Shown here: positions 1 to 22,081 of the stretch, piece after piece
Position numbering within the stretch: position 1 is the first letter of the stretch
Layout of the letters: every line of letters starts with the position of its first letter
Source of the DNA: Minisyncoccota bacterium
GTDB lineage: Bacteria; Patescibacteriota; Minisyncoccia; UBA6257; 2-01-FULL-56-20
Direction: 5' to 3'
DNA length: 64,000 nucleotides
Assembly: GCA_035541435.1 (NCBI GenBank)
Contig: DATKNL010000002.1
Span: forward strand, 67,962 to 131,961
Notes under the pieces: generated by a model
Seen by the model: only the letters and a program-made list of their open reading frames with translations
Told to the model about the DNA's origin: nothing
Databases searched by the model: none
Program-made: the position numbers and the translations under genes

Positions 1-158
1 CCGATGATGAGCATGCCGAGGGCGGCGATCACGATCCCGAGGAGCAGCAGCGGCCGGTTGCCGAGCGGGACCTCGACCATGGTAAGGTCGCGGCCCCAGT
101 CGTCGCTCAGCGATTCCTCGAACGAGATGTTGTTTGGCGATGTGCGCTTGCGCGGCAT
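1..158 (-). CDS. Partial CDS (N-terminal ~52 codons; gene runs past window start); membrane protein, possibly penicillin-binding protein 2 (MrdA) downstream of mreD
   Basis: Manual minus-strand translation: ATG at 156-158 gives MPRKRTSPNNISFEESLSDDWGRDLTMVEVPLGNRPLLLLGIVIAALGMLIIG (basic N-terminus then TM helix), open to the window edge. Sits just downstream of mreBCD, where mrdA usually lies. Confidence 0.4.
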   Translation of the reverse strand, partial: MPRKRTSPNNISFEESLSDDWGRDLTMVEVPLGNRPLLLLGIVIAALGMLII

Positions 159-177
159 GGCTTCGTTGTGGACGTCG

Positions 178-615: not shown

Positions 616-1319
616 GAGCCCTGGGCGATCACGACCGTCTGAACCTTGTTGATGTCATAGGGAAAGACGAGGGTGGCCTCGGTGAAGAGGCTGTCGGCCG
701 ACGTGCTCGTCGCGCTCACCTGCCCGACCGGCAGGCCATAGGGCATGCCCGGCCCGGCGGCATAGACGATGCTGCCCGCCGCCACGCCCGCCGTGCGCGC
801 GATCGAGCCGATCTTCGGATAGGACCCTCCTTCGAACAGGCCGTCATAGCTCGAGGTCCCCACGCGCACCGGCATCGTGAAGCCGCTGTCGAAGATCGTC
901 TCGGCGAGCGATTCGTGCGCGAAGACCTGGGCGATGCGGCCGATGAGCATCCCCTGGAACAGCACGGCCGTGCCGGTCGTCACGCCGTGGTCCGCACCCG
1001 CATCGAGCAGGAGCTCGTTTTTGAAATTGAGCGGATAGCGGGAATAGACCATCGCGCGGAGCATCCGCGGCGACGCCTGCGGCAGCTGCTCCTCGACGGT
1101 CTGATAGATGGCGACCTGCGCCTCGAGCGCCTCGTTCTGCGCCTCGAGGTTCGGGGCCAGGGCGTCACCGGGCGCCGCGGACGACGCCTCGCCCACCCCG
1201 CTTCCGGGCGTAAGCCACTGGCGGATGCGCCAGCCATAGGACGGCGCGAAGAAAATCCCGCCGGCAAGAAGCACGAGCAGGACGCCGAGGATCCAACGAT
1301 GGGACCGCCGATAGGTCAT
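612..1319 (-). CDS. mreC: Rod shape-determining protein MreC
   Basis: N-terminal TM, coiled-coil (LEAQNEALEAQVAIYQ), C-terminal beta-rich region typical of MreC. Immediately downstream of mreB. Confidence 0.75.
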   Translation of the reverse strand: MTYRRSHRWILGVLLVLLAGGIFFAPSYGWRIRQWLTPGSGVGEASSAAPGDALAPNLEAQNEALEAQVAIYQTVEEQLPQASPRMLRAMVYSRYPLNFKNELLLDAGADHGVTTGTAVLFQGMLIGRIAQVFAHESLAETIFDSGFTMPVRVGTSSYDGLFEGGSYPKIGSIARTAGVAAGSIVYAAGPGMPYGLPVGQVSATSTSADSLFTEATLVFPYDINKVQTVVIAQGS

Positions 1320-1340
1320 GAAAAAGGCTGCGATGAGAAG

Positions 1341-2384
1341 TTACAGGTTGATCGAGAGCGGCTTCAGCGGGTTGTCGAGCAGCTCGCGATGGCCCTCGAG
1401 GTTGTCGACGATCTGTCCCAGGCCGCGCACGACGCAGGTGAGCGGATCGTCGGCCACGTGCACGGTGACGCCCGTCTCCTTCTCGAGCAGCTCGTCGAGG
1501 CCGCGCAGCAGCGCGCCGCCGCCGCAGAGCACGATGCCCTGCCGCAGCACGTCGCCCGCGAGCTCCGGCGGCGTCTCTTCGATCACCTCGCGCACCGAGT
1601 CGATGATCGCGCGGAGCGACTTCGAGAGCGCCATGCGCACGTGGTTGTTGCGCAGCGCGATCTCGTTCGGCAGGCCGGTGCCGAGGTCGCGGCCGCGGAT
1701 CGGCACCTCCATCCGCTCGTCGAGCGGGATGGCCGATCCGACCGCGATCTTCGCGAATTCCGCCGTCGGCTCGCCGATCGCCAGGTGGAACTCGTCGCGC
1801 ACGAACCGCATGACGTCCTCGTTGAAGCGGTCGCCCGCGACCTTCAGGGTGCGCGAGACGACGGTGCCGCCCATCGAGATGACGGCGATGTCGGTCGTCC
1901 CGCCGCCGATGTCGATGATGAGGCTCGCCGACGGCAGCGAGATCGGCAGGCCCGAGCCGAGGGCCGCTGCGGTGGGCGACTCGACGAGATAGACCTTCGA
2001 GACGCCGGCGTTCAGGGTCGCGTCCTCGACGGACTTGCGCTCGACCTCGGTCAGGTTGTTCGGAATGGCGAGGATCGCGCGGCGGTACGAGACCATCGAG
2101 CTCGCCTTCGGGCGGCTGAGCAGGTGCCGCAGCATCTCTTCGGTCATCTCAAAGTCGGAAATCACGCCGTTCACGAGCGGGCGCACGACGTTGATGTGCG
2201 GCGGCACCCGGCCGAGCATCTTCTTCGCGTCGTCGCCAACCGCGAGCACGTGGTTCGTCTTGGTGTTCACGGCCGCGACCGATGGCTCGTTCACCATGAT
2301 CCCCCGCCCCTTCACATAGATGAGCGAGTTGGCCGTGCCGAGGTCGATGCCGATGTCTTTGAAAACCGAATCGAAGAGTCCCAT
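1341..2384 (-). CDS. mreB: Rod shape-determining actin homologue MreB
   Basis: 347 aa. DLGTANSLIYV, ILAIPNNLTEVERK and DIGGGTTDIAV actin-fold phosphate/adenosine motifs. Confidence 0.95.
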   Translation of the reverse strand: MGLFDSVFKDIGIDLGTANSLIYVKGRGIMVNEPSVAAVNTKTNHVLAVGDDAKKMLGRVPPHINVVRPLVNGVISDFEMTEEMLRHLLSRPKASSMVSYRRAILAIPNNLTEVERKSVEDATLNAGVSKVYLVESPTAAALGSGLPISLPSASLIIDIGGGTTDIAVISMGGTVVSRTLKVAGDRFNEDVMRFVRDEFHLAIGEPTAEFAKIAVGSAIPLDERMEVPIRGRDLGTGLPNEIALRNNHVRMALSKSLRAIIDSVREVIEETPPELAGDVLRQGIVLCGGGALLRGLDELLEKETGVTVHVADDPLTCVVRGLGQIVDNLEGHRELLDNPLKPLSINL

Positions 2385-2406
2385 CCGATTTCGTAAATGA
2401 TTGCGT

Positions 2407-3630
2407 TTATTTGATAAGCTTGACGGCCTCGTCGAGCGGGACGACCTTCGCGTCCTTCTCGCCGCGCCGCCTGACTTCCACCGCGCCGTCCCCGACCTTC
2501 GGGCTCGTGACGATGCGCCACGGAATGCCGATCAGGTCCGCTTCGGCGAATTTTTCGCCCGCAGATGCCGCCCTATCGTCATAGAGTACATCAATGCCCT
2601 TGCTCCGTAAAGATTCATAGATGCCGTCGCCGTCCGCGCCGTTCAGGGCGAGCAGGTGCGCGTCGAACGGGGCGACCGATGCCGGCCACAGTATACCATG
2701 GTCATCGTGAAAAAGCTCGACGATCGTGCCCATGAGGCGCGTGACGCCGATGCCGTAGGAGCCCATGACCACATAGTCGCGCTCCCCCGCCTCGTTCGTG
2801 AATGTGAGGTCGAACGCCTTCGCATATTTCGTGCCAAGCGGGAAGATGTTGCCCACTTCGACCGCCTTCTTCGCGTGCACGACGCCGCCGCACTTCGGGC
2901 ACGCCGCGCCGTCGTGCAGCTTCGAGATCTCCTGGTTCTCGGCATAGTCGCACGTGCCGCAGACGAAGATGGTGTCCTCCCCCACGTCGCAGGCGACCTG
3001 GAACTCGTGCGTGTTGCTCACCGTGAATTCGCCGCCGGCGGCGAGGGTGTAATAGGCCTTCACGCCGCAGCGCGCGAACACCTTCTTATAGGCCTCGGCC
3101 ACGCGGGCGTAATAGTCGAACAGGTCCTTTTCGTTCGCGTGGAAGCTGTAGAGGTCCTTCATCAGGAACTCCCGCCCGCGCAGCAGGCCCGACTTCGCGC
3201 GCGGCTCGTGCCGGAACTTGGTCTGGATCTGATAGGCCGCGAACGGCAGGTCCTTATAGGAGCTCACGTAATGCGACGCGATCTCGCTCATCACCTCCTC
3301 GTGCGTCCAGCTGATGTTGAAGTTCGGCTCCTTCTCGTCGCCCGCCGTCACCTTATAGACGACGTCGACGTCCCACCGTCCGGTCGCCGTGAGGTATTTC
3401 TTCTCGTGGAGCGCCGACATGAGCATCTCCTCGCCGTCCACCGCGTCCATCTCCTCGCGGATGATGTTCGATATCCTGCGGATGACGCGCCACCCGAGCG
3501 GCAGCAGGGAATAGACGCCGGCCGAGTTCTTATAGACGAATCCCGCGCGGGTGAGCAGCTGGGCGTTCAACGCCACCTCGTCCTTCGGGGCCGACCGCTC
3601 GGTTTTCGTGAAAAGCTTCGATTGGCGCAT
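2407..3630 (-). CDS. proS: Prolyl-tRNA synthetase (short ~407-aa form with Zn-ribbon insertion, no bacterial INS editing domain)
   Basis: Class II aaRS motifs (FRHEPRAKSGLLRGREF, GSYGIGVTR), C-terminal anticodon-binding domain. Start reassigned to ATG at 3630 (MRQSKLFTKTERSAPKDE); the ORF-track N-terminal extension is not protein-like. Confidence 0.9.
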   Translation of the reverse strand: MRQSKLFTKTERSAPKDEVALNAQLLTRAGFVYKNSAGVYSLLPLGWRVIRRISNIIREEMDAVDGEEMLMSALHEKKYLTATGRWDVDVVYKVTAGDEKEPNFNISWTHEEVMSEIASHYVSSYKDLPFAAYQIQTKFRHEPRAKSGLLRGREFLMKDLYSFHANEKDLFDYYARVAEAYKKVFARCGVKAYYTLAAGGEFTVSNTHEFQVACDVGEDTIFVCGTCDYAENQEISKLHDGAACPKCGGVVHAKKAVEVGNIFPLGTKYAKAFDLTFTNEAGERDYVVMGSYGIGVTRLMGTIVELFHDDHGILWPASVAPFDAHLLALNGADGDGIYESLRSKGIDVLYDDRAASAGEKFAEADLIGIPWRIVTSPKVGDGAVEVRRRGEKDAKVVPLDEAVKLIK

Positions 3631-3758
3631 CGCGTGAGGGGTTGGAATTTCCCTAAGCGTAGCACGAAAGGAATGCGCGTGCCACACGCGCGGCGCGGCC
3701 CAATCCACAGCCCCGTTTCGCGGGGCGCGCGCCCGCGTGCTACAATACGGGCATTCCA

Positions 3759-5966
3759 ATGGCAACGTCCCAGCTCGCGCTTGAGACACCGCTGTATGAG
3801 ATCGTGGGCGCACGCGCTCCGCTCCTGCGGCGGCTTGAAAAGCTGGGCGTGAAGACCGTGGGCGACCTGCTCTGGCACTTCCCCGTCCGCTACGAGGACT
3901 ATTCGAAGACCTATTCGATCGCCGAGCTCGAGCCGGGGCAGCAGGCGACGATCCAGGGCACCGTCGAGGAGATGCGCGTGCGCCACAGCTTCAGGCGCGG
4001 CATGGAGATCGTCGAAGGGACGATCGCCGACGAGACCGGATCGATCCGCGCCGTGTGGTTCAACCAGCCCTACCTCGCGAACGTGCTGAAGCCCGGCCGT
4101 CGCGCGAACTTCGCCGGCAAGGTCTCGCTGTCCGAGGAGGGCGAGCTCTATCTCAACCATCCGGTCCACGAGATCATCCGCATGAACGCGTTCGGCGCCG
4201 CGCCGAGCCACACGGGCCGACTCGTGCCCGTCTATCCCGAGACCCGCGGCCTCACCTCGCGCTGGATCCGTTTCATCATGCAGTCGGTCTTCAAGCGCAA
4301 CCCGAGGCTCGACGAATGGCTCCCCGACTCGGTGCTCGCCGAATTCGGCTTCCCGGACGTGGACGACGCCATCCGCACGGTGCACTTCCCGAACGAGGCC
4401 GAGGAGGCCGCGCGCGCGAAGCTGCGGTTCTCGTTCGAGGAGCTCTTCTTATTGCAGCTGTGGAATGTCCGGCAGAAGGCTCGGCTCGCCGCCGAGCGGG
4501 CGCCGGCCGTCCCCGTCGACATCGAGCGCATCAAGGACCTGCTCGCCGCCCTCCCCTTCGAGCTCACCCCGTCGCAGAAGAAGTCGCTCTGGGAGATCAC
4601 GAAGGACCTTGCGAACGAGCGGCCGATGAACCGCCTGCTGCAGGGCGACGTGGGGTCCGGCAAGACGGTCGTCGCGGCGATCGGCGCGATCGTCGCCGCC
4701 GACCACGGCCTGCAGACCGCCTTCATGGCGCCGACCGAGATCCTCGCTCGGCAGCACTTCGAGACGATGAAGAAGCTCTTCGACCGGTTCGAGCGGCACG
4801 AGGGGCCGGACGCGAAAAAGCTGCCGGCGATCGGCCTCCTGACCGGCACGAACGCGGTCGTCTTCTATGAGCGCGACATCGAGGCGAAGGTCCCGAAGCA
4901 GGAATTCCACAAGCACGTGGCGGACGGCGCGGTGAGCGTCGTCTTCGGCACGCACGCGCTCATCGAGAAGGGCGTCGTCTTCAAAAACCTCGGGTTCGTC
5001 ATCATCGACGAGCAGCATCGCTTCGGCGTGCGGCAGCGCGCCGAGCTCCTCGGGCGCAAGACGCGCGAGAAGAAGCAGGCGGCCGGGACCGAGCGGCAGA
5101 TCCCCCACTTCCTCAGCATGTCCGCCACGCCGATCCCGCGCACGCTCATGCTGTCGGTCTTCGGCGACCTCGACCTGTCGCTCATCACCGAGCTTCCGTC
5201 CGGCCGCAAGCCGATCGAGACGCGCATCGTCTCCCCGATCGAGCGGCAGGCGACCTATGACTTCGCCCGCAGCGAGATCAAGAACGGCCGGCAGGCATTC
5301 GTCATCTGTCCGCGCATCGAGCCGAGCGAGGACGACAGCGCGAAGGCGGGCGGGCGGAACGAGGCGCAGAAGAAGCTCGACCTCCGGTCGGTGAAAGAGG
5401 AATACGACCGGCTCTCGAAGACCGTCTTCCCCGACCTCAGGCTCGCGATGCTCCACGGGCAGATGAAGGGCAGCGAGAAGGAATCCGTCATGAAAAAGTT
5501 CGCCGCCGGCGAGTTCGACATCCTCGTCACGACCTCGGTCGTCGAGGTCGGCGTCGACGTGCCGAACGCGACGATCATGATCATCGAGGGCGCGGACCGG
5601 TTCGGCCTCGCGCAGCTCTATCAGTTCCGCGGACGCGTGGGCCGCGGCGAGCACCAGTCCTACTGCTTCCTCATGGCCGAATCGACGTCCGACGCCGCGA
5701 ACGCCCGCCTGCGCGCGATCCTCGAGGCGAAGAACGGATTTGAGCTCGCCGAGCGCGACCTCGAGCTGCGCGGACCCGGCCAGTTCTTCGGCGAGGCACA
5801 GACCGGCCTGCCCGACATCGCGATGGAAGCGCTCCGCAACCCCGAGCTCGTTCAGGGCAGCCGCGCGGCCGCGCTCAGGCTCCTGCAGGAAGAGCCGCGC
5901 CTGACGAAATTCCCCGCGCTCCGCGCGCGGGTCGAGTCGTTCGGCAAGAAGATCCACCGGGAATAA
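3759..5966 (+). CDS. recG: ATP-dependent DNA helicase RecG
   Basis: 735 aa. N-terminal wedge domain, helicase motifs GDVGSGKT, DEQHRFG, SATPIPRT, and the RecG C-terminal region. Confidence 0.95.
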   Translation: MATSQLALETPLYEIVGARAPLLRRLEKLGVKTVGDLLWHFPVRYEDYSKTYSIAELEPGQQATIQGTVEEMRVRHSFRRGMEIVEGTIADETGSIRAVWFNQPYLANVLKPGRRANFAGKVSLSEEGELYLNHPVHEIIRMNAFGAAPSHTGRLVPVYPETRGLTSRWIRFIMQSVFKRNPRLDEWLPDSVLAEFGFPDVDDAIRTVHFPNEAEEAARAKLRFSFEELFLLQLWNVRQKARLAAERAPAVPVDIERIKDLLAALPFELTPSQKKSLWEITKDLANERPMNRLLQGDVGSGKTVVAAIGAIVAADHGLQTAFMAPTEILARQHFETMKKLFDRFERHEGPDAKKLPAIGLLTGTNAVVFYERDIEAKVPKQEFHKHVADGAVSVVFGTHALIEKGVVFKNLGFVIIDEQHRFGVRQRAELLGRKTREKKQAAGTERQIPHFLSMSATPIPRTLMLSVFGDLDLSLITELPSGRKPIETRIVSPIERQATYDFARSEIKNGRQAFVICPRIEPSEDDSAKAGGRNEAQKKLDLRSVKEEYDRLSKTVFPDLRLAMLHGQMKGSEKESVMKKFAAGEFDILVTTSVVEVGVDVPNATIMIIEGADRFGLAQLYQFRGRVGRGEHQSYCFLMAESTSDAANARLRAILEAKNGFELAERDLELRGPGQFFGEAQTGLPDIAMEALRNPELVQGSRAAALRLLQEEPRLTKFPALRARVESFGKKIHRE

Positions 5967-5976
5967 GGTAGCGGCG

Positions 5977-7491
5977 CTACGCCGCCTTCGCGACCGCCTC
6001 CTTGCGCCCCTTGGGCGTCACCCAGAACCCGAGCCGGTACTTGCCGCCGAGCATGAGCCGCGTCTGCGCCTCGAGTCCCGGGAAGGCCCCGAAGACGATG
6101 AGCGTGACCGGCATGAAGGCCCACTGCAACAGATAGATGAGATAGCGGTACGGACCGAAGTCGCGCGGCTTCGGCGGCAAAAGCAGGATCGAGAGGATCG
6201 CCGAGCTCACGATGCCGAGCATCGAGAGCGTGATGATCCAGCGCGTCACGTGCGGCAGGTAGTATGCGAGGAGCGTCGAGCCGAAGTGCCGGCCGCCGAG
6301 GAAGAGCGGCAGCCATCCGAGCGCGAAGATCATGAGCGAGTTCGTCGCCCATGAATGGAATCCCTCGATCCCGTTGAAGGCCCAATAGCGCTTCTTCGCG
6401 GCCGGGATCTCGGGATCGCGCCGGAAGCCGTCGAGCATGTACGGGATGTTCTCGGCGCCCCAGCCCCACCGGCGCTGCTGCTTGTAGATGTTCCTCATCG
6501 TGCCCCAGAACGTCGGCGCGACGTTCGCGTCCATCGAGACGGGATAGAGCATCGGCTCGACGCGGAAGTCGCCATGATAGCGCAGATAGCCCTGCCAGAA
6601 GATGCGCGAGTCCTCCGAGACGATGTCGCAGTCCCAGAAGCCCACGTCGATGAGCGTCGAGAGCGGGATCGACTGCGACGAGAACGACGTGAGCCGCTCC
6701 GGCCGCGACTGCTGCATCATCTGCCAGAAGGTCGTCGAGAACGCGACGACGCGCGCGAGCGCCGGCGCCTCATAGACGTTGTTCGTGAAAAACGGGATCG
6801 GCTGATAGATCGCGCGCAGCGGGTCGCGCACCGTTAGAAAGAGGTACGTCAGCCGCCCGAAATAGTCCGGGAAGACCTGCGTGTCGACGTCAAAGACCGA
6901 CACGAGGACCCGCCCGTGCCCGATCCTCATCGGGTCGACGATCTTCGCCTGCGCCTCGCGGCCGGCCCATGCCTCGTTCGACCCCTTGCCGGGGATCTCG
7001 CCCGCCGCCCCGGCCGGGTGCACCGTCGTCATGAAGCGCCCGAACCGCGGACCGAACTCGCGCCCGATGCGCTCCCCCGTCTCGCGCGCGCCGGCGCCCG
7101 CACGCTCCTCGAGCGCGAGGACGACGATCATGCGGTCCGTCGGATAGCGCACCGCGAGCAGGCTCTCGAAGCTCTCCTTCACGACCTCGTACGGCTCGTC
7201 GTACATCGGCAGGATCACGAGGTGCCACACGTCCCGCCACGGCATGCGCACGCCGCCCGCCGACGCGAGCTTGTCGAGCTCGGCCTGCCAGTCCACTTTC
7301 ATATTGGCCTTCATCGCCTGATAGGTTGCCCGCAGGTGCAGCGAAAGGTACGCAGTCTTCAGGAGCCAATAGACGTCGAACAAAATGATGAACACCGACA
7401 CCCACACCGGCAGGAGCCAAGAAAAAAGGACCATCAGCACGATGGTCGACCACGCCAGGATTCCCGGCAGCATTTCGAAAAATCGTTTCAT
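5977..7491 (-). CDS. Family-2 membrane glycosyltransferase (cellulose-synthase / processive beta-glycan synthase-like)
   Basis: 504 aa. N- and C-terminal TM helices, GT2 core with DVDT-like and QQRRWGWG (QxxRW) motifs. Confidence 0.8.
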   Translation of the reverse strand: MKRFFEMLPGILAWSTIVLMVLFSWLLPVWVSVFIILFDVYWLLKTAYLSLHLRATYQAMKANMKVDWQAELDKLASAGGVRMPWRDVWHLVILPMYDEPYEVVKESFESLLAVRYPTDRMIVVLALEERAGAGARETGERIGREFGPRFGRFMTTVHPAGAAGEIPGKGSNEAWAGREAQAKIVDPMRIGHGRVLVSVFDVDTQVFPDYFGRLTYLFLTVRDPLRAIYQPIPFFTNNVYEAPALARVVAFSTTFWQMMQQSRPERLTSFSSQSIPLSTLIDVGFWDCDIVSEDSRIFWQGYLRYHGDFRVEPMLYPVSMDANVAPTFWGTMRNIYKQQRRWGWGAENIPYMLDGFRRDPEIPAAKKRYWAFNGIEGFHSWATNSLMIFALGWLPLFLGGRHFGSTLLAYYLPHVTRWIITLSMLGIVSSAILSILLLPPKPRDFGPYRYLIYLLQWAFMPVTLIVFGAFPGLEAQTRLMLGGKYRLGFWVTPKGRKEAVAKAA

Positions 7492-7641
7492 GTTCGGTGC
7501 GGGCGCCGGCGCCCGCGATGACGACTCATCATACGGCCTAGACGCGAAAATATAAAGGAGGAGGCCGCAAGGCCTGACGCTTTAGCCCTCGTTTCCTTAA
7601 TGATACCACTGGCGGCCGCGCAGCCGGTGCGCCCCGGCTGA

Positions 7642-7670
7642 TTGACAACCATCGCGCCGCGTTTCACAAT
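7642..7670 (+). promoter_or_regulatory. Sigma-70-like promoter (TTGACA-N17-CACAAT) for gene 7710
   Basis: Consensus -35 and a near-consensus -10 at 17-bp spacing, ~40 bp upstream of the GGAGGA RBS/ATG at 7710. Confidence 0.45.
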
Positions 7671-7709
7671 GATCGCAGTTATTCCAAATCAAAAGGTCAG
7701 GAGGACCTT

Positions 7710-8099
7710 ATGAGAACTGCCGTAGCAGGCGCCTTCTGGTTCCTGTGCGTCGTAATGACCATCGCCGCTTATGAAGACCCGGTCGGTTACGCGGGCTCAG
7801 CCATCGCCCTCGGCGCCATGGCACTCGTCTTCAACCTGGCCGCCGCAAGGATCCTCAGAAGCTATCCGTTCCCAATCGCGGTCCTCGCCGTGATCGGCGT
7901 CAGCGTCGTCAATGTGATGCTTAACTTGCACTACGGCCGCTATTTTGCGGAATTGAACATCCTCGGGCGCGCGGCATTCTCCCTGGTTGTTGCTTTGGCC
8001 AACGCGCTCGCCGTGGTCCGCATCATCGATTGGCTCATGAACCGCTTCGCCGACCCGGCCATGAGAAAAACTGGCGGCATCGACGTGAGCGGATTCTAG
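7710..8099 (+). CDS. Hypothetical small polytopic membrane protein
   Basis: 129-aa ORF with GGAGGA RBS 7 nt upstream; three or four hydrophobic helices. Confidence 0.5.
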   Translation: MRTAVAGAFWFLCVVMTIAAYEDPVGYAGSAIALGAMALVFNLAAARILRSYPFPIAVLAVIGVSVVNVMLNLHYGRYFAELNILGRAAFSLVVALANALAVVRIIDWLMNRFADPAMRKTGGIDVSGF

Positions 8100-8940: not shown

Positions 8941-10779
8941 ATGTTTTACATCATGGTGTCGCTCGTGAGCGCGTTCGTCGGGGCTCTTCCTTTGCTTTTC
9001 AAACGGAAGATCAATGCCGCGATCGTGCAGGGTCTGATTACCGCGATCGTTGGATACTGCCTCATTTACCTCCTGGCTCCTTCGACGGCATATCCGCTGC
9101 TCGGGGCGCCTGGACTGCTGACGGTAATCTGGTGGGTCTTCGCCGCCGTCATAGATGGCTCGCAGGAGAACGAAGTCACCGCTCTTGTCGTAGTCCCGAT
9201 CTTCGGGATCATCCTTTATGCGGTCGTCGGCTTGTCCGGATGGGAAGCGTTTCGCGCAAGCGATTACGCCAACATGATGGGCTCGGTGGACGTGCGCGAA
9301 TGGACGCAGGATGTTCAACCCAAGGATCCTGCCCATATGCGCATGAGCACGAAAGAGAATGCCCTCTATCAGGCGAAGAAGGTCATGGGAAAGGATGGAG
9401 CCATCGGCAGCCAGTTCGAGATCAGCGAAGACAACATGACGCTCCAGATGATCCGCGGGGAACTCTGGTACGTCGTTCCACTGGATTATTCCGGGTTCGG
9501 CGTATGGATGAACTCTCGGGGAGTCCCGGGATACATCAAGGTTCATGCCGAGGATCCCCATCGGGAACCTGAGCTCGTAATACTGAAAGATGACGAGCTT
9601 ATGCACTACACGCCGGGTGCCTACTTTGGCAACGACTTAGAGCGGCACCTCCGGAATCGTGGCTATCTCAACAAGCTGCTTTCCGATTGGACCTTCGAGG
9701 TCGATGAGGACGGGCATGACTGGTGGGTGGTCACGGTTTCCGAACCGACCATCGCATGGTGGGGTGAGCGCGTTTCCGGCGTCGCGATCGTGAATCCGTC
9801 TACCGGCGATGACACGTTCTATCCGCTCGGGAAAGTTCCCGATTGGGTGGACCGAGTCATTCCTCAGCATATCGTGAAAGATTACCTTGCATGGCAAGGC
9901 GACCTGTCCGGAGGCTGGTGGAACAGCTGGTGGGGAGCCGTAAACCTCACGGAACCCGAGACGCCGAATCTCATCTATGGTTCCGGCGATCAGCCCGAAT
10001 GGGTGACCGGCATCACGTCTTCGAACGGCAAAGATGACTCGCTCGTGGCGTTGGTGTATACCAATTCACGAACCGGGAAATCTGTCCGTTATGTGATGAA
10101 GGGCGGAGGCACCGATACGGCCATCCTTGATGCCGTGAACAAGAACAGCCAGGTTCAGTTCAAGCACCTGCATGGCGTGGCGCCGCAGATCTACAACGTG
10201 TATGGTCAGCCGACGAGCGTCATCCCGTTGTTCAACGAAAGCCATTCGTACCAAGGCGTCGCCATGGTTCCCATCAACGACATCCAAACGGTGGCGGTGG
10301 GTGGCGACCAATATGAGGCGCTCCGTTCGTACGAACAGCTCCTCTCCGAGGCGGGCCAGCGCGTCGCGTTGGACAAAGAGCGCACCCTGCAAACCATCGA
10401 GGGGGTCGTCGACCGCTTTAGCGCGGAGGTTACGAGCAGCGGAGGTACGGTCTATTACCTTCACCTCCCTGGCATTTCGTGCCTCTTTACTGCCGGCGCC
10501 GGCGCATCAGCGAAGCTGCCGGTAACGAAAGAGGGCGATAAGGTGAAGATCGAGTTCTATGCATCGGACCGCGATGTGGTCCCGATCCATGGGTTCGATA
10601 ATCTTTCCCTTGTCCTCTCGGCCAGCAAAGTACAACAGCAGGTTCGCGCCGAAGTGAAGGAACGGCAAGGCACTCAGGAAGTTCGATCCGATACGCAGAC
10701 CGTCGTGAACCGGATCCAACAAATGTCGCCCGAGGATTTGCAAAAGCTGAAATCGCAAGTCCCTCCTCAGTCGCAGTGA
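8941..10779 (+). CDS. Hypothetical membrane-anchored extracytoplasmic protein (612 aa)
   Basis: Strong RBS. Three N-terminal TM helices then a large Trp-rich soluble domain. No recognizable catalytic motifs. Confidence 0.6.
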   Translation: MFYIMVSLVSAFVGALPLLFKRKINAAIVQGLITAIVGYCLIYLLAPSTAYPLLGAPGLLTVIWWVFAAVIDGSQENEVTALVVVPIFGIILYAVVGLSGWEAFRASDYANMMGSVDVREWTQDVQPKDPAHMRMSTKENALYQAKKVMGKDGAIGSQFEISEDNMTLQMIRGELWYVVPLDYSGFGVWMNSRGVPGYIKVHAEDPHREPELVILKDDELMHYTPGAYFGNDLERHLRNRGYLNKLLSDWTFEVDEDGHDWWVVTVSEPTIAWWGERVSGVAIVNPSTGDDTFYPLGKVPDWVDRVIPQHIVKDYLAWQGDLSGGWWNSWWGAVNLTEPETPNLIYGSGDQPEWVTGITSSNGKDDSLVALVYTNSRTGKSVRYVMKGGGTDTAILDAVNKNSQVQFKHLHGVAPQIYNVYGQPTSVIPLFNESHSYQGVAMVPINDIQTVAVGGDQYEALRSYEQLLSEAGQRVALDKERTLQTIEGVVDRFSAEVTSSGGTVYYLHLPGISCLFTAGAGASAKLPVTKEGDKVKIEFYASDRDVVPIHGFDNLSLVLSASKVQQQVRAEVKERQGTQEVRSDTQTVVNRIQQMSPEDLQKLKSQVPPQSQ

Positions 10780-10979
10780 TTGAATTCAACCCTCGGCCCG
10801 CCATGCACCAACCAGTGCGATGCGGGCTGATTTTTTTGTCTCGAAAATTTGCAGTCCCAAGGGGAATCGCCCCGCGGCTCACGCGCTCGCCGTCGCTCGC
10901 GCGTGGCCTGGGCACCGCCTCACGGATTTTCTCTGCTGAGAAAATCCGCTCCGGCGGTCCGATTCCTCTTTGAGAAAAC

Positions 10980-11098
10980 CGACAAAACAAAACATGCCTC
11001 GGTAAGGGCTCTCGGAGGCGCGATGAGCGCCGAGAGCTGAGGCGCGCATCCAGCAGGACGCGACGCCGCACCTTACCGAGGCATGTTTTGCTTTGTCA
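10980..11098. repeat. Long inverted repeat (27-bp arms, 1 mismatch, ~63-nt loop) abutting the tRNA-Glu 3' end
   Basis: GACAAAACAAAACATGCCTCGGTAAGG at 10980-11006 vs its reverse complement at 11072-11098. A second perfect 10-bp hairpin lies at 10923-10946. Confidence 0.6.
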
Positions 11099-11099
11099 G

Positions 11100-11171
11100 T
11101 AGCCCCAAGGGGAATCGAACCCCTATTTGCGCCGTGAAAGGGCGCCGTCCTAGCCATTAGACGATGAGGCC
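11100..11171 (-). tRNA. tRNA-Glu (anticodon UUC)
   Basis: Manual fold of the reverse complement: acceptor GGCCUCA/UGGGGCU with two G-U pairs, anticodon stem-loop with CUUUCAC loop giving UUC, T-arm GGGG-UUCGAUU-CCCC. No encoded CCA. Confidence 0.85.
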
Positions 11172-11289
11172 TCGCTGCCGACGGCGCGCGCCGCACGACA
11201 ACCATCCTATTTAACGCGAATTTGACAGAAAACACAAGTTCCAGCATGATAAACCTCAGAAGATCGTCAACCGAAACCCGGGGTGAGCC

Positions 11290-11646
11290 ATGGACTTTCT
11301 CACAGGAATCCTTCGGATCCTTGCGAGGCCGCTGCAGATTTTCCTGCAAATCTTCGCGAGGCAACCTATCTACCTTCAGCTCAGAGGAAGCACGACCGAG
11401 CTGACCGCCCAGTATTACGCATTGGACAGGGAATGCATCGAAGTCGTGACCGACGGCGAGAACGCCCTTTTCGTGCCGGGCAGCGACATCAACCAGGCCC
11501 TCTGCCTCTTTTATAAGAGGAAGATCCCGGGATGGATCAACTACCGCGACGACTATGTGACGAGAGGCATCTGCAAGCGCGGGGAATTCTATGCGCAGGT
11601 GGACGCCGAAAAGCCGGAGCCGTCCGGCCAGCACGCCGCGGTCTGA
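11290..11646 (+). CDS. Hypothetical protein (118 aa)
   Basis: ORF followed by a strong terminator; no recognizable domain. Confidence 0.4.
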   Translation: MDFLTGILRILARPLQIFLQIFARQPIYLQLRGSTTELTAQYYALDRECIEVVTDGENALFVPGSDINQALCLFYKRKIPGWINYRDDYVTRGICKRGEFYAQVDAEKPEPSGQHAAV

Positions 11647-12860: not shown

Positions 12861-14348
12861 TTAGTACGACGTGGGAACCCACTGGTCGATGCGGTTGTTC
12901 GTGTAATCGGCGACGTAGAGATTCCCGTTCGACGAGAACCCGATGCCGAAGGGATTCTGGAACTGGCCGTTCCCGGAACCGACCGAGCCGAACGATGTGC
13001 TATAGACGAAGGTGCCGCCGCTCGGAACCCATTTGTCCACGCGGTTGTTCGAAGCCTGGGCGATATACAGGTTGCCGCCCGAGTCGAAGGCGATGCCCAG
13101 GGGATCGCTCAGGAAGCCGTTCCCCGATCCGCTCGAGCCGAACGACAGGCTATAGGCATAGGTCGCCCCGCTCGGGGTCCACTTGTCGATGCGGTTGTTG
13201 TTCGAGTCGCTCACGTACATGTTGCCGCCGCCGTCGAAGGCGATGTAGGCCGGGCCGCTGAACTGGCCGTCGCCCGAACCGCCGGAGCCCGTCGACGTGC
13301 TATAGACGAAGGTGCCGCCGCTCGGGGTCCACTTCTCGATGCGGTTGTTCGACATGTCGGCGACATACATGTTGCCGCCATAGAACGCGATCCCCACGGG
13401 ATCGTTGAACTGGCCGTCGCCTGAGCCGAGCGACCCGGTCGACGTGCTATAGACGAACGTGGTGCTGCTCGGCACCCACTTCTCAAGGCGGTTGTTGAAC
13501 GAATCGGCGATCCACAGGTTGCCGCTGCCGTCGAAGGCGAGGCCCTGCGGATGGCTGAACTGGCCCGCGCCGGCGCCGCCGGAGCCGAATGGCGTGCTCG
13601 AGACGAACGCGCCGCCGCTCGGCACCCACTTGTCGATGCGGTTGTTCGAATAGTCGGCGATATAGATGTTGCCGCTGCCGTCGAAGGCGAGCGCGTCGGG
13701 ATGGCCGAACTGGCCGTTGCCGGCGCCGGACGTCCCGAAGGACGTCCCGAAAAGGTATGACGGCCGGCCGGGGCTCGTGAGCTGGATGTCGCCCACCTCA
13801 TAGGCCTTCGTGTCGCTGCCGCCGTCGTTCGCGGCGAGCGGCGTGTATTTCTGCGACTCGAGATAGCTTGAGACCTTCCATCCGTTGCCGTTCGTCACAT
13901 AGACGTAATAGTCGCCGGACGAGGTCGTGTTCACCGGGTCGATGGGCAGCTTCGACAGGGGCGAGCCGGCGTTCATCTTGGTGAAGTCGATCGGGACCCA
14001 TCCCGTGCCGTCCACCTTATACACCGAAGCCGAGGCGGCGCAGTGATAGGCCCCGCCTGCCGGGAACCCAAGCCCCGAGCAGTCCGTTCCCGCCGAGCTC
14101 GTCGCGGTCGGATCGATAAGCGACAGATAATAGACGTAGGGCGTGCCGTAGCCGCCTGCGAGATTCTCGTTGTTCGCGATGCCGACCGCGTTGTTGATCG
14201 TGCTGAGGTCCGAAACGCGGGTCGCGTCGCGCGCCTGCTGCAGGGTGATCTGCGGGTTGATCACATAAATAACAACCACCGCGATCACCGCGATGACGCC
14301 GATCACAATGAGAAGCTCTATGAGGGTAAATCCGGCCTTCCTACTCAT
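12861..14348 (-). CDS. Type-IV-pilin-like protein (prepilin N-terminal methylation/TM segment) fused to an NHL-repeat beta-propeller
   Basis: N-terminus GFTLIELLIVIGVIAVIAVV (class III signal). C-terminal half has ~6 repeats of the ...GQF..P.G.A.D..GN.Y.AD..NNRI.KW... NHL signature. Confidence 0.8.
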   Translation of the reverse strand: MSRKAGFTLIELLIVIGVIAVIAVVVIYVINPQITLQQARDATRVSDLSTINNAVGIANNENLAGGYGTPYVYYLSLIDPTATSSAGTDCSGLGFPAGGAYHCAASASVYKVDGTGWVPIDFTKMNAGSPLSKLPIDPVNTTSSGDYYVYVTNGNGWKVSSYLESQKYTPLAANDGGSDTKAYEVGDIQLTSPGRPSYLFGTSFGTSGAGNGQFGHPDALAFDGSGNIYIADYSNNRIDKWVPSGGAFVSSTPFGSGGAGAGQFSHPQGLAFDGSGNLWIADSFNNRLEKWVPSSTTFVYSTSTGSLGSGDGQFNDPVGIAFYGGNMYVADMSNNRIEKWTPSGGTFVYSTSTGSGGSGDGQFSGPAYIAFDGGGNMYVSDSNNNRIDKWTPSGATYAYSLSFGSSGSGNGFLSDPLGIAFDSGGNLYIAQASNNRVDKWVPSGGTFVYSTSFGSVGSGNGQFQNPFGIGFSSNGNLYVADYTNNRIDQWVPTSY

Positions 14349-14403
14349 AGGAGTAGTTTAGCAGAAACGGTTTGCGCGCCCTGGGTAGAACCTCGTCGGC
14401 CCG

Positions 14404-15903
14404 CTAAAAGCCTGTCGGAACCCACTTGTTCACGCGATAGGCCATCTGCCGGTCGGATATGAGGATATTCCCGCTCGCGTCGAAGGCGATGCCCCATGGA
14501 TAGGTGAACTGCCCGGTGCTCGTTCCCGCCGAGCCGAACGAGGTGCTATAGGTGAAGACGCCCGAATTCGGGAACCATTTGTCGATCCGCTTGTTGCCGG
14601 CGTCGGCGACATAGAGGTTGCCACCGGCATCGAACGCGAGCCCGATGGGGTTCTGCATCTGCGCGCTGCCCGAGCCGAGCGATCCGAAGGACGTGCTATA
14701 GGCATAGGTACCGCCACTCGGGACCCACTTCTCGACGCGGTTGTTGGCTGAATCCGAGATATAAAGGTTGCCGCTGCCGTCGATCGCGATGCCGGTCGGG
14801 CCGTTCACCTGCCCTGGTCCCGAGCCGAGCGATCCGAAGGACGTGCTATAGGCATAGGTCGTGCCGCTCGGCGTCCATTTCTGGATGACGCTGTTCAGGT
14901 AGTCGTTCACGTAAAGGTTGCCGCTGCCGTCGAAGACGAAGCTGAACGGGTCGTTGAACTGGCCAGGGCCGGACCCACCGGTGCCGAACGACGTGACGTA
15001 GGCGTAGGTCGTGCCGCTCGGCGCCCACTGCTGGATCCGCTTGTTGTTGATGTCGCCGATGAGCAGGTTGCCGCTGCCGTCGATCAGGATGCTCGTCGGG
15101 CCGTTGAACTGTCCCGCTCCGGAGCCGCCCGAGCCGAACGTGGTGAAATAGGTATAGGTCGTGCCGCTCGGGACCCACTTCTCGATGCGGTTGTTCAGGA
15201 AGTCCGCGACGAGGACGTTGCCGCTCGCATCGACCGCGACGCCGGTCGGGCCGTTGAACTGGCCCGCGCCCGCGCCGTTCGTTCCGAAGCTCGTGCCGTA
15301 CGTGAACGCGACCCGTCCGGGGCTCGAAAGCTGGATGGCGCCCACCTCATAGGCCTTCGGATCGGTGCCGCCGTCGCTCGCGGCCAAGGGGCCGTACTTC
15401 TGCGAGTCAAGATAGGTGGACAGCTTCCATCCGTTGCCGTTCGTCACATAGACGTAATAGTCGCCTGACGAGGTCGTGTTTACCGGATCGACGGGCAGCT
15501 TCGAGATCGGCGCGCCGGAGCTCATCTTGGTGAAGTTGATCGGTATCCATCCCGTGCCGTCGATATTATAGAGGGACGACGACGCGGCGCAGTGATATGA
15601 GCCGCCGGCGGGAAAGCCGAGGGCTGAGCAGTCGGTTCCTGCCGAGCTCGTGGCGGTCTTGTCGATGAGCGAAAGATAATAGACGTACGGCGTGCCATAG
15701 CCGCCCGGAAGGCTCTCGTTGTTCGCGATGCCGACAACGTTGTTGATCGTGCTGAGGTCGGAAACGCGGGTCGCATCCCGCGACTGCTGGAGCGTCGCCT
15801 GAGGATTGATCACGTAGATCACCACCACGGCGATGACCGCGATCACGGCGATCACGATAAGAAGTTCGATCAGGGTGAATCCGCCAGCCTTATTCAGTTT
15901 CAT
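14404..15903 (-). CDS. Type-IV-pilin-like NHL-repeat beta-propeller protein (tandem paralog)
   Basis: Start moved to ATG 15903 (MKLNKAGGFTLIELLIVIAVIAV). First ~200 aa ~85% identical to neighbour 12861-14348; NHL blades more divergent. Confidence 0.8.
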   Translation of the reverse strand: MKLNKAGGFTLIELLIVIAVIAVIAVVVIYVINPQATLQQSRDATRVSDLSTINNVVGIANNESLPGGYGTPYVYYLSLIDKTATSSAGTDCSALGFPAGGSYHCAASSSLYNIDGTGWIPINFTKMSSGAPISKLPVDPVNTTSSGDYYVYVTNGNGWKLSTYLDSQKYGPLAASDGGTDPKAYEVGAIQLSSPGRVAFTYGTSFGTNGAGAGQFNGPTGVAVDASGNVLVADFLNNRIEKWVPSGTTYTYFTTFGSGGSGAGQFNGPTSILIDGSGNLLIGDINNKRIQQWAPSGTTYAYVTSFGTGGSGPGQFNDPFSFVFDGSGNLYVNDYLNSVIQKWTPSGTTYAYSTSFGSLGSGPGQVNGPTGIAIDGSGNLYISDSANNRVEKWVPSGGTYAYSTSFGSLGSGSAQMQNPIGLAFDAGGNLYVADAGNKRIDKWFPNSGVFTYSTSFGSAGTSTGQFTYPWGIAFDASGNILISDRQMAYRVNKWVPTGF

Positions 15904-15949
15904 AACCCTTTCATTATATCCCTCCGCGCCGCCACCCCCTGTGCACAAC

Positions 15950-22056: not shown

Positions 22057-22081
22057 CTCAAATAAAACAGCTCTTGAACGA

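Follow-up and report, generated by a model that had tools for sequence, protein, structure and literature searches.

A candidate miniature insertion element behind a tRNA-Glu gene and related structured units behind tRNA genes of CPR bacteria

INTRODUCTION

The general properties of genomic islands that integrate into tRNA and tmRNA genes have been described: the 3' ends of these genes are classic integration targets, integration leaves partial-tRNA repeats, and leftover partial tRNAs occur next to hot spots of integration (10.1101/2020.12.28.424599). In a 64,000-nt stretch of a Minisyncoccota bacterium genome (hereafter the window), an initial annotation had pointed to a repeated tRNA 3' end and a long inverted repeat beside a tRNA-Glu gene, which could be a miniature non-autonomous element or the remnant left by an excised island. 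Here we describe this locus, whose layout is tRNA, terminator-like palindrome, inverted copy of the tRNA 3' end, structured core and direct copy of the tRNA 3' end. The stretch from the inverted to the direct copy is referred to as a unit, and its two tRNA-like ends as the inverted arm and the direct arm.

The units resemble tRNA- and tmRNA-integrating islands and their integrase-less derivatives (cis-mobilizable elements, tycheposon remnants) in having the 3' end of a tRNA or tmRNA gene as target and in leaving that tRNA intact. As with the islands, the insert lies between directly repeated tRNA 3' ends, relatives differ in its presence or absence, and tandem partial copies are found (in locus L033). 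The units differ from the islands in that the insert is small (~200-250 bp) and gene-less with no integrase found, the tRNA end always has an extra, inverted copy, conservation lies in a folded non-coding core, and one core is found at many tRNAs with arms that are cognate each time. MITEs, REP/REPIN sequences, Rickettsia palindromic elements and Correia/ERIC-type repeats are, like the units, short, non-coding, multi-copy, hairpin-rich and intergenic; they are often beside terminators, and mobilisation, if any, is in trans. Unlike these repeats, the units have no fixed short target-site duplication, their 'terminal repeats' copy the target tRNA and not the element, they are placed strictly behind tRNA or tmRNA genes, and their core is far more conserved across distant hosts.

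Two further groups invite comparison. Integron attC sites and the CTX-phage attP hairpin (XerCD) are imperfect palindromes whose folded form recreates a duplex recombination site, and by analogy the units may do the same; bulged stem bases and the possibility of very small mobile units are common to both, and the T-loop GTTCGAT appears by eye to agree with the integron core GTTRRRY at 6 of 7 positions. The units differ from folded single-strand sites in having no integron integrase or attI context, a target identity of 13-30 bp (vs 3-7 bp) and a central part that is conserved rather than variable. In tmRNA, viral tRNA-like structures, mascRNA, YrlA and 3'ETS-leuZ, an acceptor/T-stem-like helix closes a larger RNA, as it does in the units, and tRNA 3' spacers of the 3'ETS-leuZ type likewise lie within the 3' region of a tRNA transcription unit. 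In the units, by contrast, the core replaces the T-loop, no CCA is encoded, the helix copies the neighbouring tRNA, a terminator stands between tRNA and unit, and there is no Rfam match to the tRNA-mimic families. A full-text literature search found no description of such elements.

RESULTS

The tRNA-Glu 3' end is duplicated within a strongly folded interval

The 14-mer CCCAAGGGGAATCG has exactly two occurrences in the window (10856-10869 and 11104-11117, ~248 bp apart in the same orientation), while 0.06 matches with at most one mismatch are expected per window by chance, and two or more were seen in 0 of 100 shuffles. The att-like repeat reported in the initial annotation is real, and it is longer than stated, reaching 17 nt at 94% identity and, with three small gaps allowed, 26 identical positions in 32 columns. 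This gapped repeat spans the T-stem to ~8 nt of 3' flank, as GGGG(TT)CGATTCCCCTTGGG(GCT)ACTG(A)CAAA, and its left copy is made of the T-arm and acceptor 3' strand of tRNA-Glu plus the first ~8 nt of flank. The T-loop part GGAATCGAAC is generic to all tRNAs and 13-mers are common to tRNA-Pro and tRNA-Gly; the 14-mer contains acceptor-specific bases. As also claimed initially, the ~225 bp between the repeats has no real ORF (the ORFs listed there merely overlap the tRNA and hairpins, at 62% GC), and gene calls on an identical contig leave this interval empty. Independent assemblies of two other samples are identical in sequence across the stretch.

The tRNA-Glu 3' region folds far better than its shuffles (minus strand: -200.2 kcal/mol, z = -12.3; plus strand: z = -9.6), and the big palindrome, inverted arm included, reaches 10956-11121. 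Table 1 lists the parts of the locus together with two other units of the window.

Table 1. Features of the tRNA-Glu locus and of the other units found in the window
Feature	Position	Strand	Basis
tRNA-Glu(UUC), intact	11099/11100-11171	-	ARAGORN; Rfam tRNA 61.1 bits
Hairpin B, directly 3' of tRNA-Glu	10978-11099	-	inverted-repeat search and fold
Inverted arm (inverted copy of tRNA 3' end at 10954-10970)	10957-10974	-	inverted repeats, folds
Conserved single-stranded/junction block CGCCGGAGC of family-2 core	10948-10956	-	identical in L035 tRNA-Ser unit
hpA, perfect 11-12-bp hairpin with AGCA tetraloop	10923-10948	-	inverted-repeat search
Conserved block GAGGCGGUGCCCAG	10908-10922	-	identical to L035 over 14 nt
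hpB, hairpin with conserved apex GCGACGGCG and covarying stem	10876-10907	-	folds, L035 comparison
Direct arm (right copy of direct repeat)	10847-10875	-	repeat search, alignment
Intrinsic terminator of convergent 612-aa gene (ORF 8941-10779)	10795-10838	+	sequence: GGCCCGC...GCGGGCU then T7
Full-length family-1 unit behind tRNA-Gly(CCC) 58744-58815	58866-59022	+	R1 145.7 bits
Truncated family-1 unit behind tRNA-Pro(GGG) 21986-22057	22073-22122	+	R1 22.8 bits

Hairpin B has 30-nt arms (10978-11007 and 11071-11100; 27 nt in the initial annotation) that are 93% complementary, and the 63 nt between them form an apex with two sub-hairpins; UUUUGUUUUGUCGGUUUUCUC follows on the tRNA strand. With its A-rich 5' flank, 30-bp stem and U-rich tail, it takes the position of the terminator-like palindrome (T1) of the family architecture, which elsewhere is occupied by textbook bidirectional terminators (perfect 17-26-bp A-tract/stem/T-tract hairpins). 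Hairpin B was not called by the terminator consensus scan, whose loop limit is 3-8 nt. The suggestion that this inverted repeat belongs to a MITE family is not supported. It sits where other copies hold the tRNA terminator, and it is unique in our searches: its 17-nt arm has no second copy in the window or in IMG/VR, and the 12 single matches in GTDB genomes are from unrelated taxa, none paired, at chance level for a 17-mer.

Next to hairpin B lies the inverted arm CUCAAAGAGGAAUCGGAC (minus strand), antisense to the T-loop, the T-stem 3' strand and the start of the acceptor 3' strand of tRNA-Glu; this copy had been missed in the initial annotation. It pairs with the direct copy as the 5' strand of a closing helix, whose 3' strand is the direct arm GCGGGGCGAUUCCCCUUGGGACUGCAAA (minus strand), consisting of a mini T-arm with a 5-nt loop, then the T-stem 3' strand, the acceptor 3' strand and flank. 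In the fold models, this helix is best read as the tRNA's own 3' end in two copies, one inverted and one direct. Inside it, hpA has perfect 11-nt arms (10923-10933 and 10938-10948; the small hairpin noted initially, with 10-nt arms), and the adjoining block GAGGCGGUGCCCAG supplies GGCG, which closes the stem below hpA, and CCC, which is paired to GGG in the direct arm. That block has no comparable intergenic match elsewhere in ~277 kb of compared sequence. The stretch GCGAGCGAyrGCGAGCGCGUGAG on the 3' side of the hpB region is common to the Glu unit and short-form family-1 units. Behind the direct arm, the terminator of the 612-aa gene takes the position of a second terminator (T2), and T2 hairpins follow other units too.

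The Glu unit has a homologue behind a tRNA-Ser gene

A homologue of the Glu unit was found behind tRNA-Ser in locus L035, and the two share the blocks CGCCGGAGC, AGCA, GAGGCGGUGCCCAG and GCGACGGCG. Of 36 pairs compared, 15 show compensatory changes of both partners and 2 a change of a single partner, with no pair disrupted; for hpA, the loop and position are kept with a different stem sequence. The L035 unit likewise has a direct arm with a 5-nt loop (GAGGGAGAAUCCCUC), so the 'missing TT' in the direct arm of the Glu unit is characteristic of the family rather than a result of decay. We refer to these two members as family 2. The features present in the Glu unit are CGCCGGAGC, hpA (AGCA), GAGGCGGUGCCCAG, hpB (GACGG), the mini T-arm direct arm and the tRNA-derived closing arms. 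The family-2 covariance model (R2) gives its two members 145 and 161 bits, having been built from these two, and further members were not found in ~256 kb of CPR sequence. The sole IMG/VR match to the family-2 pattern lies inside a coding region and is a chance match. In Rfam 15, tRNAs alone reach the gathering threshold in the window, with nothing credible at E<=10 over 10700-11300 or 58800-59060, and related loci gave only tRNAs, rRNA and a group I intron; matches to MIR918, ylbH and similar families are far below gathering and reflect long hairpins only.

Units of a second core type recur behind other tRNA genes

The same layout recurs in the window behind tRNA-Gly and, truncated, tRNA-Pro, and in 16 metagenome loci with Met, Pro, Gly, Arg, Glu, His and Ser tRNAs and a tmRNA-like gene; at least one of the 16 contigs is typical of the candidate phyla radiation. 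Units follow all three tRNAs of the window, comprising two core types, and two of the three tRNAs in L040 (12.8 kb). The second core type, family 1, has 11 full copies with covarying stems and strongly conserved sequence across genomes of 44-62% GC. In its structure, 95.8% of the cells are paired and 8 pairs are doubly changed, which 0 of 500 shuffles reach. The family-1 model (R1) contains hp1 (GGGGAACCG/CGGTTCCCC), GTGTMGGAGG and a hairpin with a fixed CCGAGGG apex, always with 7 variable bp around it. The ends of family 1, GGAATCGAAC...GTGAGATTCC, are symmetric at 8 of 10 positions, and the repeat runs on into the target-derived arms. At the tRNA-Gly(CCC) locus, a perfect 20-bp terminator (~58820-58860) separates tRNA and unit, the architecture being that of the Glu unit; the truncated unit behind tRNA-Pro has just the inverted arm plus the initial ~45 nt of core and is 95.6% identical to the Gly copy.

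With filters off, the Glu unit scores just 15.6 bits against R1, with hp1 and hp3 absent and solely the closing helix and the 3' block aligned, so that the architecture is shared but not the core. The Glu unit is not a decayed family-1 copy either, because the AGCA hairpin, GAGGCGGUGCCCAG and the 5-nt T-loop are conserved in L035. The Glu unit is best read as representing a wider class that CPR (Patescibacteria) genomes carry behind their tRNA and tmRNA genes and that has two or more core types.

Units are co-oriented with their tRNA in all but one case, the L035 core, which is flipped (antisense to its tRNA) and lies inside the loop of a palindrome made by the tRNA end and its inverted copy. 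The tRNA-His unit is a circularly permuted variant, and the L053 core is closed by a non-tRNA stem within an unrelated hairpin. A tandem G.A motif is invariant in the closing helix, the tRNA-sense strand is purine-rich and folds better in 15 of 15 units, and family-1 G-U vs A-C counts have no strand bias.

The arms are cognate to the neighbouring tRNA

No two loci have the same terminator hairpin or the same arms, and the arms are cognate. Counted from tRNA position 61, the direct arm matches its tRNA at 14 of 14 positions in L034, L040, L044 and L048 and at 12 of 14 in the Glu unit, while non-cognate pairs of direct arm and tRNA score 3-10 of 14. The direct repeat always starts at the boundary of T-loop and T-stem, its length varies among loci (~13-30 bp), and the direct arm extends 1-8 nt beyond the discriminator. 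Inverted and direct copies are both found solely at tRNAs that carry a unit (10-12 of 12 positions, vs a background of 8-9 of 12). The direct copy matches the tRNA perfectly whereas the inverted arm does not, and in L036 both arms share a change that is missing from the tRNA, with the helix preserved.

Orthologous tRNA loci are empty in relatives

The comparison with related genomes that the initial annotation had called for revealed empty sites. The tRNA-Glu of the window is near-identical to those of the relatives L051 and L057, and no unit is found at either. The syntenic L051 also has an identical tRNA-Pro without a unit, its tRNA-Pro/VIT1 spacer being ~75 nt shorter exactly at the unit of the window. 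Relative to the orthologous loci, the ~250 bp at tRNA-Glu is an insertion, and the flank past the direct copy (ACUGCAAAUUUU) resembles the native L051 flank (ACUACAAAAUUU). These empty sites could reflect loss instead of gain. Gene order on the 3' side of tRNA-Glu differs from that of relatives: the relatives of the 612-aa gene (61-71% identity) have other neighbours and no tRNA-Glu nearby, and the 118-aa neighbour is an orphan.

Using Pfam, we identified no integrase, transposase or reverse transcriptase near the units in L037 and L040, nor in the larger ORFs that the window contains, and the units have no copy in IMG/VR, phage or plasmid collections. A related autonomous element was not found either. 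We note that 13 IMG/VR contigs carry the 3' 24-mer of tRNA-Glu as attP-like half-tRNAs; as a lead to a phage att site these were rejected, their flanks being AT-rich and unrelated to the window.

DISCUSSION

We tentatively favour, at a little short of an even chance, the reading of 10847-11099 as an insertion behind tRNA-Glu that combines a terminator-like hairpin with a ~125-nt non-coding family-2 unit, i.e., a miniature non-autonomous integrative element. The proposal of a miniature element in the initial annotation survives for the piece between the inverted and direct copies, which belongs to a repeated short non-coding family, though not for its 27-30-bp inverted repeat, which is not supported as the terminal repeat of the element. 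As an active, targeted process, insertion would occur at the boundary of the T-loop and the T-stem 3' strand of the tRNA gene, either by site-specific recombination via a tRNA-3'-end segment carried by the element or by an integration event in which ~15-30 bp of target become duplicated. This would leave the tRNA intact and provide it with a new terminator, with a second 3'-end copy and then the original flank on the far side. Through the inverted arm, the tRNA-end sequence of the element might then fold into a duplex that joins it either to the tRNA end, over the terminator, or to the direct copy, over the core, giving a folded att-like intermediate. The core, too, may have some role. The enzyme would work in trans and is perhaps encoded elsewhere in the genome. 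Preferences of integration for sublocations within tRNA genes are reportedly a subject of Williams (2002). Cores appear to move between tRNA types, because the same variable hairpin is found in cores at tRNA-Pro (L037) and tRNA-Gly (L040) and the Pro and Gly copies of the window are so similar. The attP-like 3' halves of tRNA-Glu on phage contigs also fit the insertion reading.

Several observations count against the mobile reading. Since the arms differ per locus, a moving element must acquire new cognate arms at each tRNA, and we know of no mechanism that makes the inverted arm. The variable length of the direct repeat is unlike a fixed target-site duplication, and neither a mobility gene nor a phage or plasmid copy was found in the places searched. 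The permuted tRNA-His variant, the flipped L035 core and the non-tRNA stem of L053 fit a structured RNA better than a recombination site. The same holds for the tandem G.A, which is invariant, and for the purine-rich strand with its consistently better folding. The best explanation is also limited by family 2 having two members only. Three other ideas were rejected: origin of the terminator hairpin by fold-back duplication of the native flank (the flank past the direct copy is without the left arm of the hairpin), tRNA-primed reverse transcription with the inverted arm as a primer-binding-site-like sequence (there is no CCA complement, and the repeat enters genomic flank), and a split, permuted or intron-containing tRNA (there are no D or anticodon arms, and the left 'T-loop' is antisense).

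It is possible, though distinctly less probable than insertion, that mobility is unneeded, the units being non-coding RNA genes resident at these loci, or else 3' external transcribed spacers, transcribed by read-through from the tRNA. The closing helix would then mimic the acceptor/T-stem minihelix of the neighbouring tRNA, so that RNase P, RNase Z and the CCA-adding enzyme cut and perhaps tag the core, itself a protein-binding platform, ribozyme or tRNA-related regulator, and the arms would be local duplications that selection on their pairing maintains. Stems that covary while their purine-rich junctions and loops stay invariant, the tandem G.A of the closing helix, the higher stability of the sense strand, the near-constant co-orientation with the tRNA and the preserved helix of L036 all agree with this, as do two G-U pairs, none broken, on the tRNA-sense strand of family 2; permuted and alternatively closed forms (tRNA-His, L053) are as in ribozymes and other structured RNAs. 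However, a strong A-tract/stem/T-tract terminator separates tRNA and unit, often with another behind, and there is no space for a promoter; the L035 core is antisense to its tRNA, orthologous loci of relatives do without units, truncated copies are tolerated, the family-1 pair counts favour neither strand, Rfam holds no relative, and the passage of the direct copy beyond the discriminator into flank is left unexplained. We regard it as similarly doubtful that the two cores are new CPR-specific classes of structured RNA, cotranscribed with the tRNA, released by tRNA maturation via the tRNA-copying helix and perhaps CCA-tagged or charged, in which the conserved multi-helix core, with its invariant tandem G.A and its tolerance of circular permutation, is a ribozyme or a protein- or tRNA-binding module and spreads between tRNA loci by rewriting its arms to suit each new tRNA. 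Under the insertion reading, too, the core may be expressed as RNA.

An origin of the arms and long hairpins as by-products of palindrome growth (template switching, quasipalindrome correction) near terminators beside a constrained tRNA, with the cores as selfish palindromic repeats like REPINs or Rickettsia palindromic elements that insert into these hairpins, seems unlikely. The terminator hairpins are indeed unusually long and perfect, the palindrome continues, with imperfections, into the 3' end of the tRNA, and the L035 and L053 cores each lie within a larger palindrome or hairpin; but the direct copy, being perfect against the tRNA where the inverted arm is not, was not templated from that arm, core-less tRNAs show no inverted copy, and the conservation of core 1 across so wide a range of GC points to function or very recent spread. 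Very improbable is the attL/attR pair of a large island or prophage at tRNA-Glu, later excised or deleted, as the initial annotation had considered. The directly repeated tRNA 3' end, the attP-like use of tRNA-Glu 3' halves by phages, the altered gene order on the 3' side and the known partial-tRNA remnants beside integration hot spots (10.1101/2020.12.28.424599) would suit it, yet the interval is a compact, conserved structured unit with a homologue at another tRNA of another genome, its boundaries are repeated at many tRNAs, an outcome not expected of independent deletions, and the interval holds no gene fragment of a phage or island and resembles no phage, plasmid or viral DNA; the larger ORFs of the window include no integrase. 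We can hardly credit chance, or a decayed tandem pseudo-tRNA next to an ordinary terminator: generic T-loop sequence and the 13-mers common to tRNA-Pro and tRNA-Gly speak for it, but the 14-mer includes acceptor-specific bases and recurs so close by in the same orientation against so low an expectation, ARAGORN makes no call and RF00005 has no match at E<=10 over 10850-10980, and L035 shares conserved blocks that are not tRNA.

For genome annotation, the units matter because programs that look for islands and prophages will mistake their partial-tRNA repeats for att sites. They also account for 'orphan' hairpins between genes of CPR MAGs, and the covariance models R1 and R2 allow a direct genome-wide census. 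CPR bacteria have tiny genomes with little spare DNA, and a sizeable share of their sampled tRNAs nevertheless precede ~200-250 bp of conserved, gene-less, structured sequence. If mobile, the units would be the smallest tRNA-targeting integrative elements seen, and the puzzle would be how an element gains copies of each new target in both inverted and direct form. As RNAs, they would represent two unannotated RNA families with a novel tRNA-mimic closure, which could bear on tRNA processing and quality control in these bacteria.

Repeats and hairpins behind the tRNA-Glu gene

The window, with 62% GC, belongs to a MAG assigned to 'Candidatus Paceibacterota', in the candidate phyla radiation (CPR). 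As noted in the initial annotation, the tRNA-Glu 3' end is repeated as an exact 14-mer, CCCAAGGGGAATCG, which has two copies in the window (0.06 expected by chance; no shuffled sequence contained two matches). When extended, the direct repeat is 17 nt long at 94%, or has 26 identical positions with three small gaps, reaching from the T-stem to ~8 nt past the tRNA. Direct repeats of this kind are left at tRNA att sites by tRNA-targeting integrative elements. A third, inverted copy of the 3' end, overlooked before, pairs with the direct copy and lengthens the large palindrome. A pseudo-tRNA, raised as an explanation of the 14-mer match, was not detected in the interval, nor was any Rfam match, even at E ≤ 10. 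The folding energy of the region is extreme (z = -12.3 for the tRNA strand, -9.6 for the opposite one), and the stretch is found with identical sequence in two further assemblies.

Both hairpins reported earlier exist, with slightly different dimensions (perfect 11-nt arms in place of a perfect 10-bp hairpin, and 30-nt in place of 27-bp arms). The larger one (hairpin B) had been proposed as the arms of a MITE; instead, it occupies the terminator position, and its arm is unique, with no second copy in the window, none in IMG/VR and, across 185,579 species genomes, nothing beyond single matches at chance level.

Beside the tRNA-Glu promoter lies a 118-aa ORF (74 aa in the NCBI annotation), which among 5.8 billion proteins matches only itself. 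Self-comparison of the window also revealed a 158-nt inverted repeat (75% identity, copies ~1.5 kb apart).

Table. Positions of the features in the window and in the loci compared
Sequence	Feature	Position	Remarks
Window	CCCAAGGGGAATCG, two exact copies	10856-10869; 11104-11117
Window	Third copy of tRNA-Glu 3' end	10954-10970	inverted
Window	Lengthened palindrome	10956-11121
Window	Large inverted repeat (hairpin B)	10978-11007 + 11071-11100	30-nt arms, 93%
Window	tRNA-Glu(UUC)	11099/11100-11171	minus strand
Window	118-aa ORF	11290-11646
Window	Tandem paralogues, TsaD-TGT interval	12861-15948
Window	tRNA-Pro(GGG)/VIT1-like gene spacer	22058-22160
Window	Truncated family-1 copy in this spacer	22073-22122	R1 22.8 bits
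Window	158-nt inverted repeat	29305-29459 + 30985-31139
Window	Full-length family-1 element behind tRNA-Gly(CCC)	58816-59022	R1 145.7 bits
Window	Bidirectional terminator, tRNA-Gly locus	~58820-58860	perfect 20 bp
Window	Multi-hairpin unit, tRNA-Gly locus	58866-59022	157 nt; closed by antisense and sense tRNA-Gly T-stem/acceptor copies
Window	Invariant CGAAC/GUGAG	58879-58883 + 59001-59005	alignment columns 14-18 + 140-144; predicts tandem sheared G.A/A.G
L033	tmRNA-like gene, then family-1 unit	7310-7840
L033	Distal partial copy of tmRNA-like 3' end	~7818-7836
L037	23S rRNA gene with group I intron	72-3858	Rfam
L040	Variant behind tRNA-His	10648-10790
L053	Family-1 core	11490-11595

Two families of units behind tRNA genes

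The layout at tRNA-Glu recurs at the two remaining tRNAs in the window, whose loci (tRNA-Pro and tRNA-Gly) share a 45-nt stretch, 95.6% identical, that begins with the antisense T-loop GGGAATCGAAC. At tRNA-Gly the order is complete: the tRNA is followed by a perfect 20-bp hairpin of the A-tract/stem/T-tract type, then by the tRNA T-stem and acceptor in inverted copy, a multi-hairpin core of ~130 nt, and a direct arm that partially copies the tRNA 3' end. A metagenome scan with a 19-mer from the shared stretch retrieved 17 loci (44-58% GC; including one chance match and two duplicate pairs), in nearly all of which this core (family 1) comes after a tRNA followed by a perfect hairpin of 17-26 bp. 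Their hosts are tRNA-Met, -Pro, -Gly, -Arg and -Glu and a tmRNA-like gene, and both arms derive from the local tRNA itself: from position 61, the direct arm is identical to its cognate tRNA at 14/14 positions in four loci (non-cognate pairs: 3-10), and it extends 1-7 nt beyond the discriminator. The T-loop-like pieces adjoining the core, AATCGAAC and GAGATT, do not vary, not even in L034 and L040, where the T-loop of the tRNA is GACT; this places the element-target junction at about position 60/61. Since near-identical cores carry cognate arms (tRNA-Pro of L037 versus tRNA-Gly of L040; tRNA-Pro versus tRNA-Gly of the window), we infer that cores have moved between tRNA loci. L037 also contains a 23S rRNA gene with a group I intron, which is typical of the CPR.

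Eleven full-length copies make up the family-1 alignment, with 58 invariant columns. In the RNAalifold prediction, a closing helix is joined by two hairpins, one invariant and 9 bp long, the other with 7 covarying outer pairs around a fixed CC-GAG-GG apex; 95.8% of the cells are paired and 8 pairs (22 cells) have changed on both sides, a level reached by 0/500 shuffles, and every slid control was far lower. The closing helix includes an invariant motif (C-G, tandem G.A/A.G, A-U, C-G), a predicted K-turn- or loop-E-like element. Model R1, built for this family, recovers all full copies (113-167 bits), and also truncated copies and three variants. In the apparently circularly permuted variant behind tRNA-His in L040, which also shows a tandem G.A, hairpin hp1 (normally closed) opens into T-arm-derived arms and the closing helix becomes a short linker. 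In L035 a core in reverse orientation is flanked by tRNA-Ser on one side and by the tRNA's 3' end, inverted, on the other. No tRNA is near the L053 core (hp2, hp3 and hp4), which immediately precedes a dinB-like gene and has a 9-bp closing stem that is not tRNA-derived (ATATGGATG/CATCCATAT). In L033 the unit follows a tmRNA-like gene (3' end ...GGGGCCGGTTCGATTCCGGCCGCCGCAACCA) missed by ARAGORN and Rfam, and with the more distal partial copy the repeated 3' ends look like tandem att-type remnants.

The tRNA-Glu unit scores only 15.6 bits with R1, aligning in the closing helix and one 3' block. A decayed family-1 copy is ruled out by a second unit in L035, located behind tRNA-Ser after the inverted arm, which aligns with the tRNA-Glu unit in every block: the inverted arm, CGCCGGAGC, an AGCA-loop hairpin, GAGGCGGUGCCCAG, a hairpin whose apex is GCGACGGCG, AG(C/U)CG, and a mini T-arm (a 5-nt loop, then the 3' strands of T-stem and acceptor from the local tRNA). 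Of the 36 predicted pairs none is broken: 15 differ between the units in both bases and 2 in one base. A tandem G.A is also present in hairpin hpA of the L035 unit. Model R2 of this second family gives the two units 145 and 161 bits and found no third member in ~256 kb. Two T-loop bases absent from the tRNA-Glu repeat are a family-2 trait, not decay. With this homologue, the features of the initial annotation fit a defined architecture (the 14-mer is the direct arm and the small hairpin is hpA), and the interval is a unit rather than an excision scar. The observation at tRNA-Glu was real, and only in part what had been supposed.

Empty sites in relatives

L051, a relative whose TsaD is 68% identical to that of the window, shares the gene order RecG, GT2, ..., tRNA-Glu(-), small ORF, TsaD, ..., TGT, LeuRS, ..., tRNA-Pro(GGG), VIT1. 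Its tRNA-Glu has three differences from that of the window and its tRNA-Pro is identical, and no hairpin, core or arms were found at either gene; the two tRNA-Pro/VIT1 spacers can be aligned at either end, and the ~75 nt missing from L051 in between fall exactly at the truncated unit. tRNA-Glu is also bare in L057; related genomes do have the empty site that had been suggested for comparison. Among 23 CPR tRNAs surveyed, inverted and direct 3'-end copies were found only where a core is present. The flank behind the direct copy in the window (ACUGCAAAUUUU) resembles the native flank in L051 (ACUACAAAAUUU), which is only suggestive of an ancestral flank behind the direct copy. Relatives found via the 612-aa neighbour have a different gene order and no tRNA-Glu. 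In the TsaD-TGT interval, the window has two tandem paralogues whose N-termini resemble type IV prepilins and which carry NHL-type repeats, and L051 has one 212-aa gene.

Mobility genes and viral sequences

No integrase, transposase or reverse transcriptase adjoins the units in L037 and L040 or is encoded among the larger ORFs of the window, which are housekeeping (aminoacyl-tRNA synthetases, TGT, S4, PPDK, pilin-like proteins). Searches of IMG/VR, GenBank phages and PLSDB plasmids found no copy of the cores. In 13 of 15 IMG/VR contigs with the exact tRNA-Glu 3' 24-mer (L018-L032), a tRNA-Glu(CUC) is represented by its 3' half alone, beginning at the anticodon stem. Such halves have the look of attP sites in AT-rich phages, with flanks unrelated to those of the window.

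Nature of the units

The units are conserved, non-coding and structured, with tRNA-derived arms and at least two core types; they are dispensable, polymorphic between relatives, and found at many tRNA types. We are highly confident that the tRNA-Glu unit belongs to a real element family, and it is probably an insertion. The primary signature, a direct repeat that starts at the T-loop boundary and stops shortly beyond the gene, is a trace of tRNA-targeting integrative elements (10.1101/2020.12.28.424599), and we therefore favour, tentatively, a miniature non-autonomous integrative element. Plausibly, such an element would carry the tRNA 3' end, the terminator hairpin and the inverted arm as a foldable att-like hairpin, which may be likened to integron attC and the attP of CTX phage; once it had jumped to a different tRNA, gene conversion with the displaced native 3' end could restore that tRNA, and the inverted arm could subsequently be brought into line by palindrome correction. 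Against this model, neither an enzyme nor an excised form was found, the repeat length varies, and there is no ready account of the inverted arm.

Also counting against it are several RNA-like features, namely the permuted variant, the tandem G.A motif, the purine-rich junctions and the greater stability of the sense strand in 15/15 units; they speak for the main rival, a resident RNA whose closing helix imitates the tRNA acceptor/T-stem for processing. We consider the resident RNA less likely, its chief difficulty being the strong terminator that separates tRNA and unit, along with the tolerance of truncated copies and absences. It is compatible with the integrative element, and there is a smaller but real probability that the cores are new structured-RNA classes. 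No description of such elements was found in the full-text literature searched. The units apparently constitute an undescribed class of tRNA-flanking elements in CPR bacteria, a variation on kinds already known: integrative elements that target tRNAs, and palindromic non-coding repeats.
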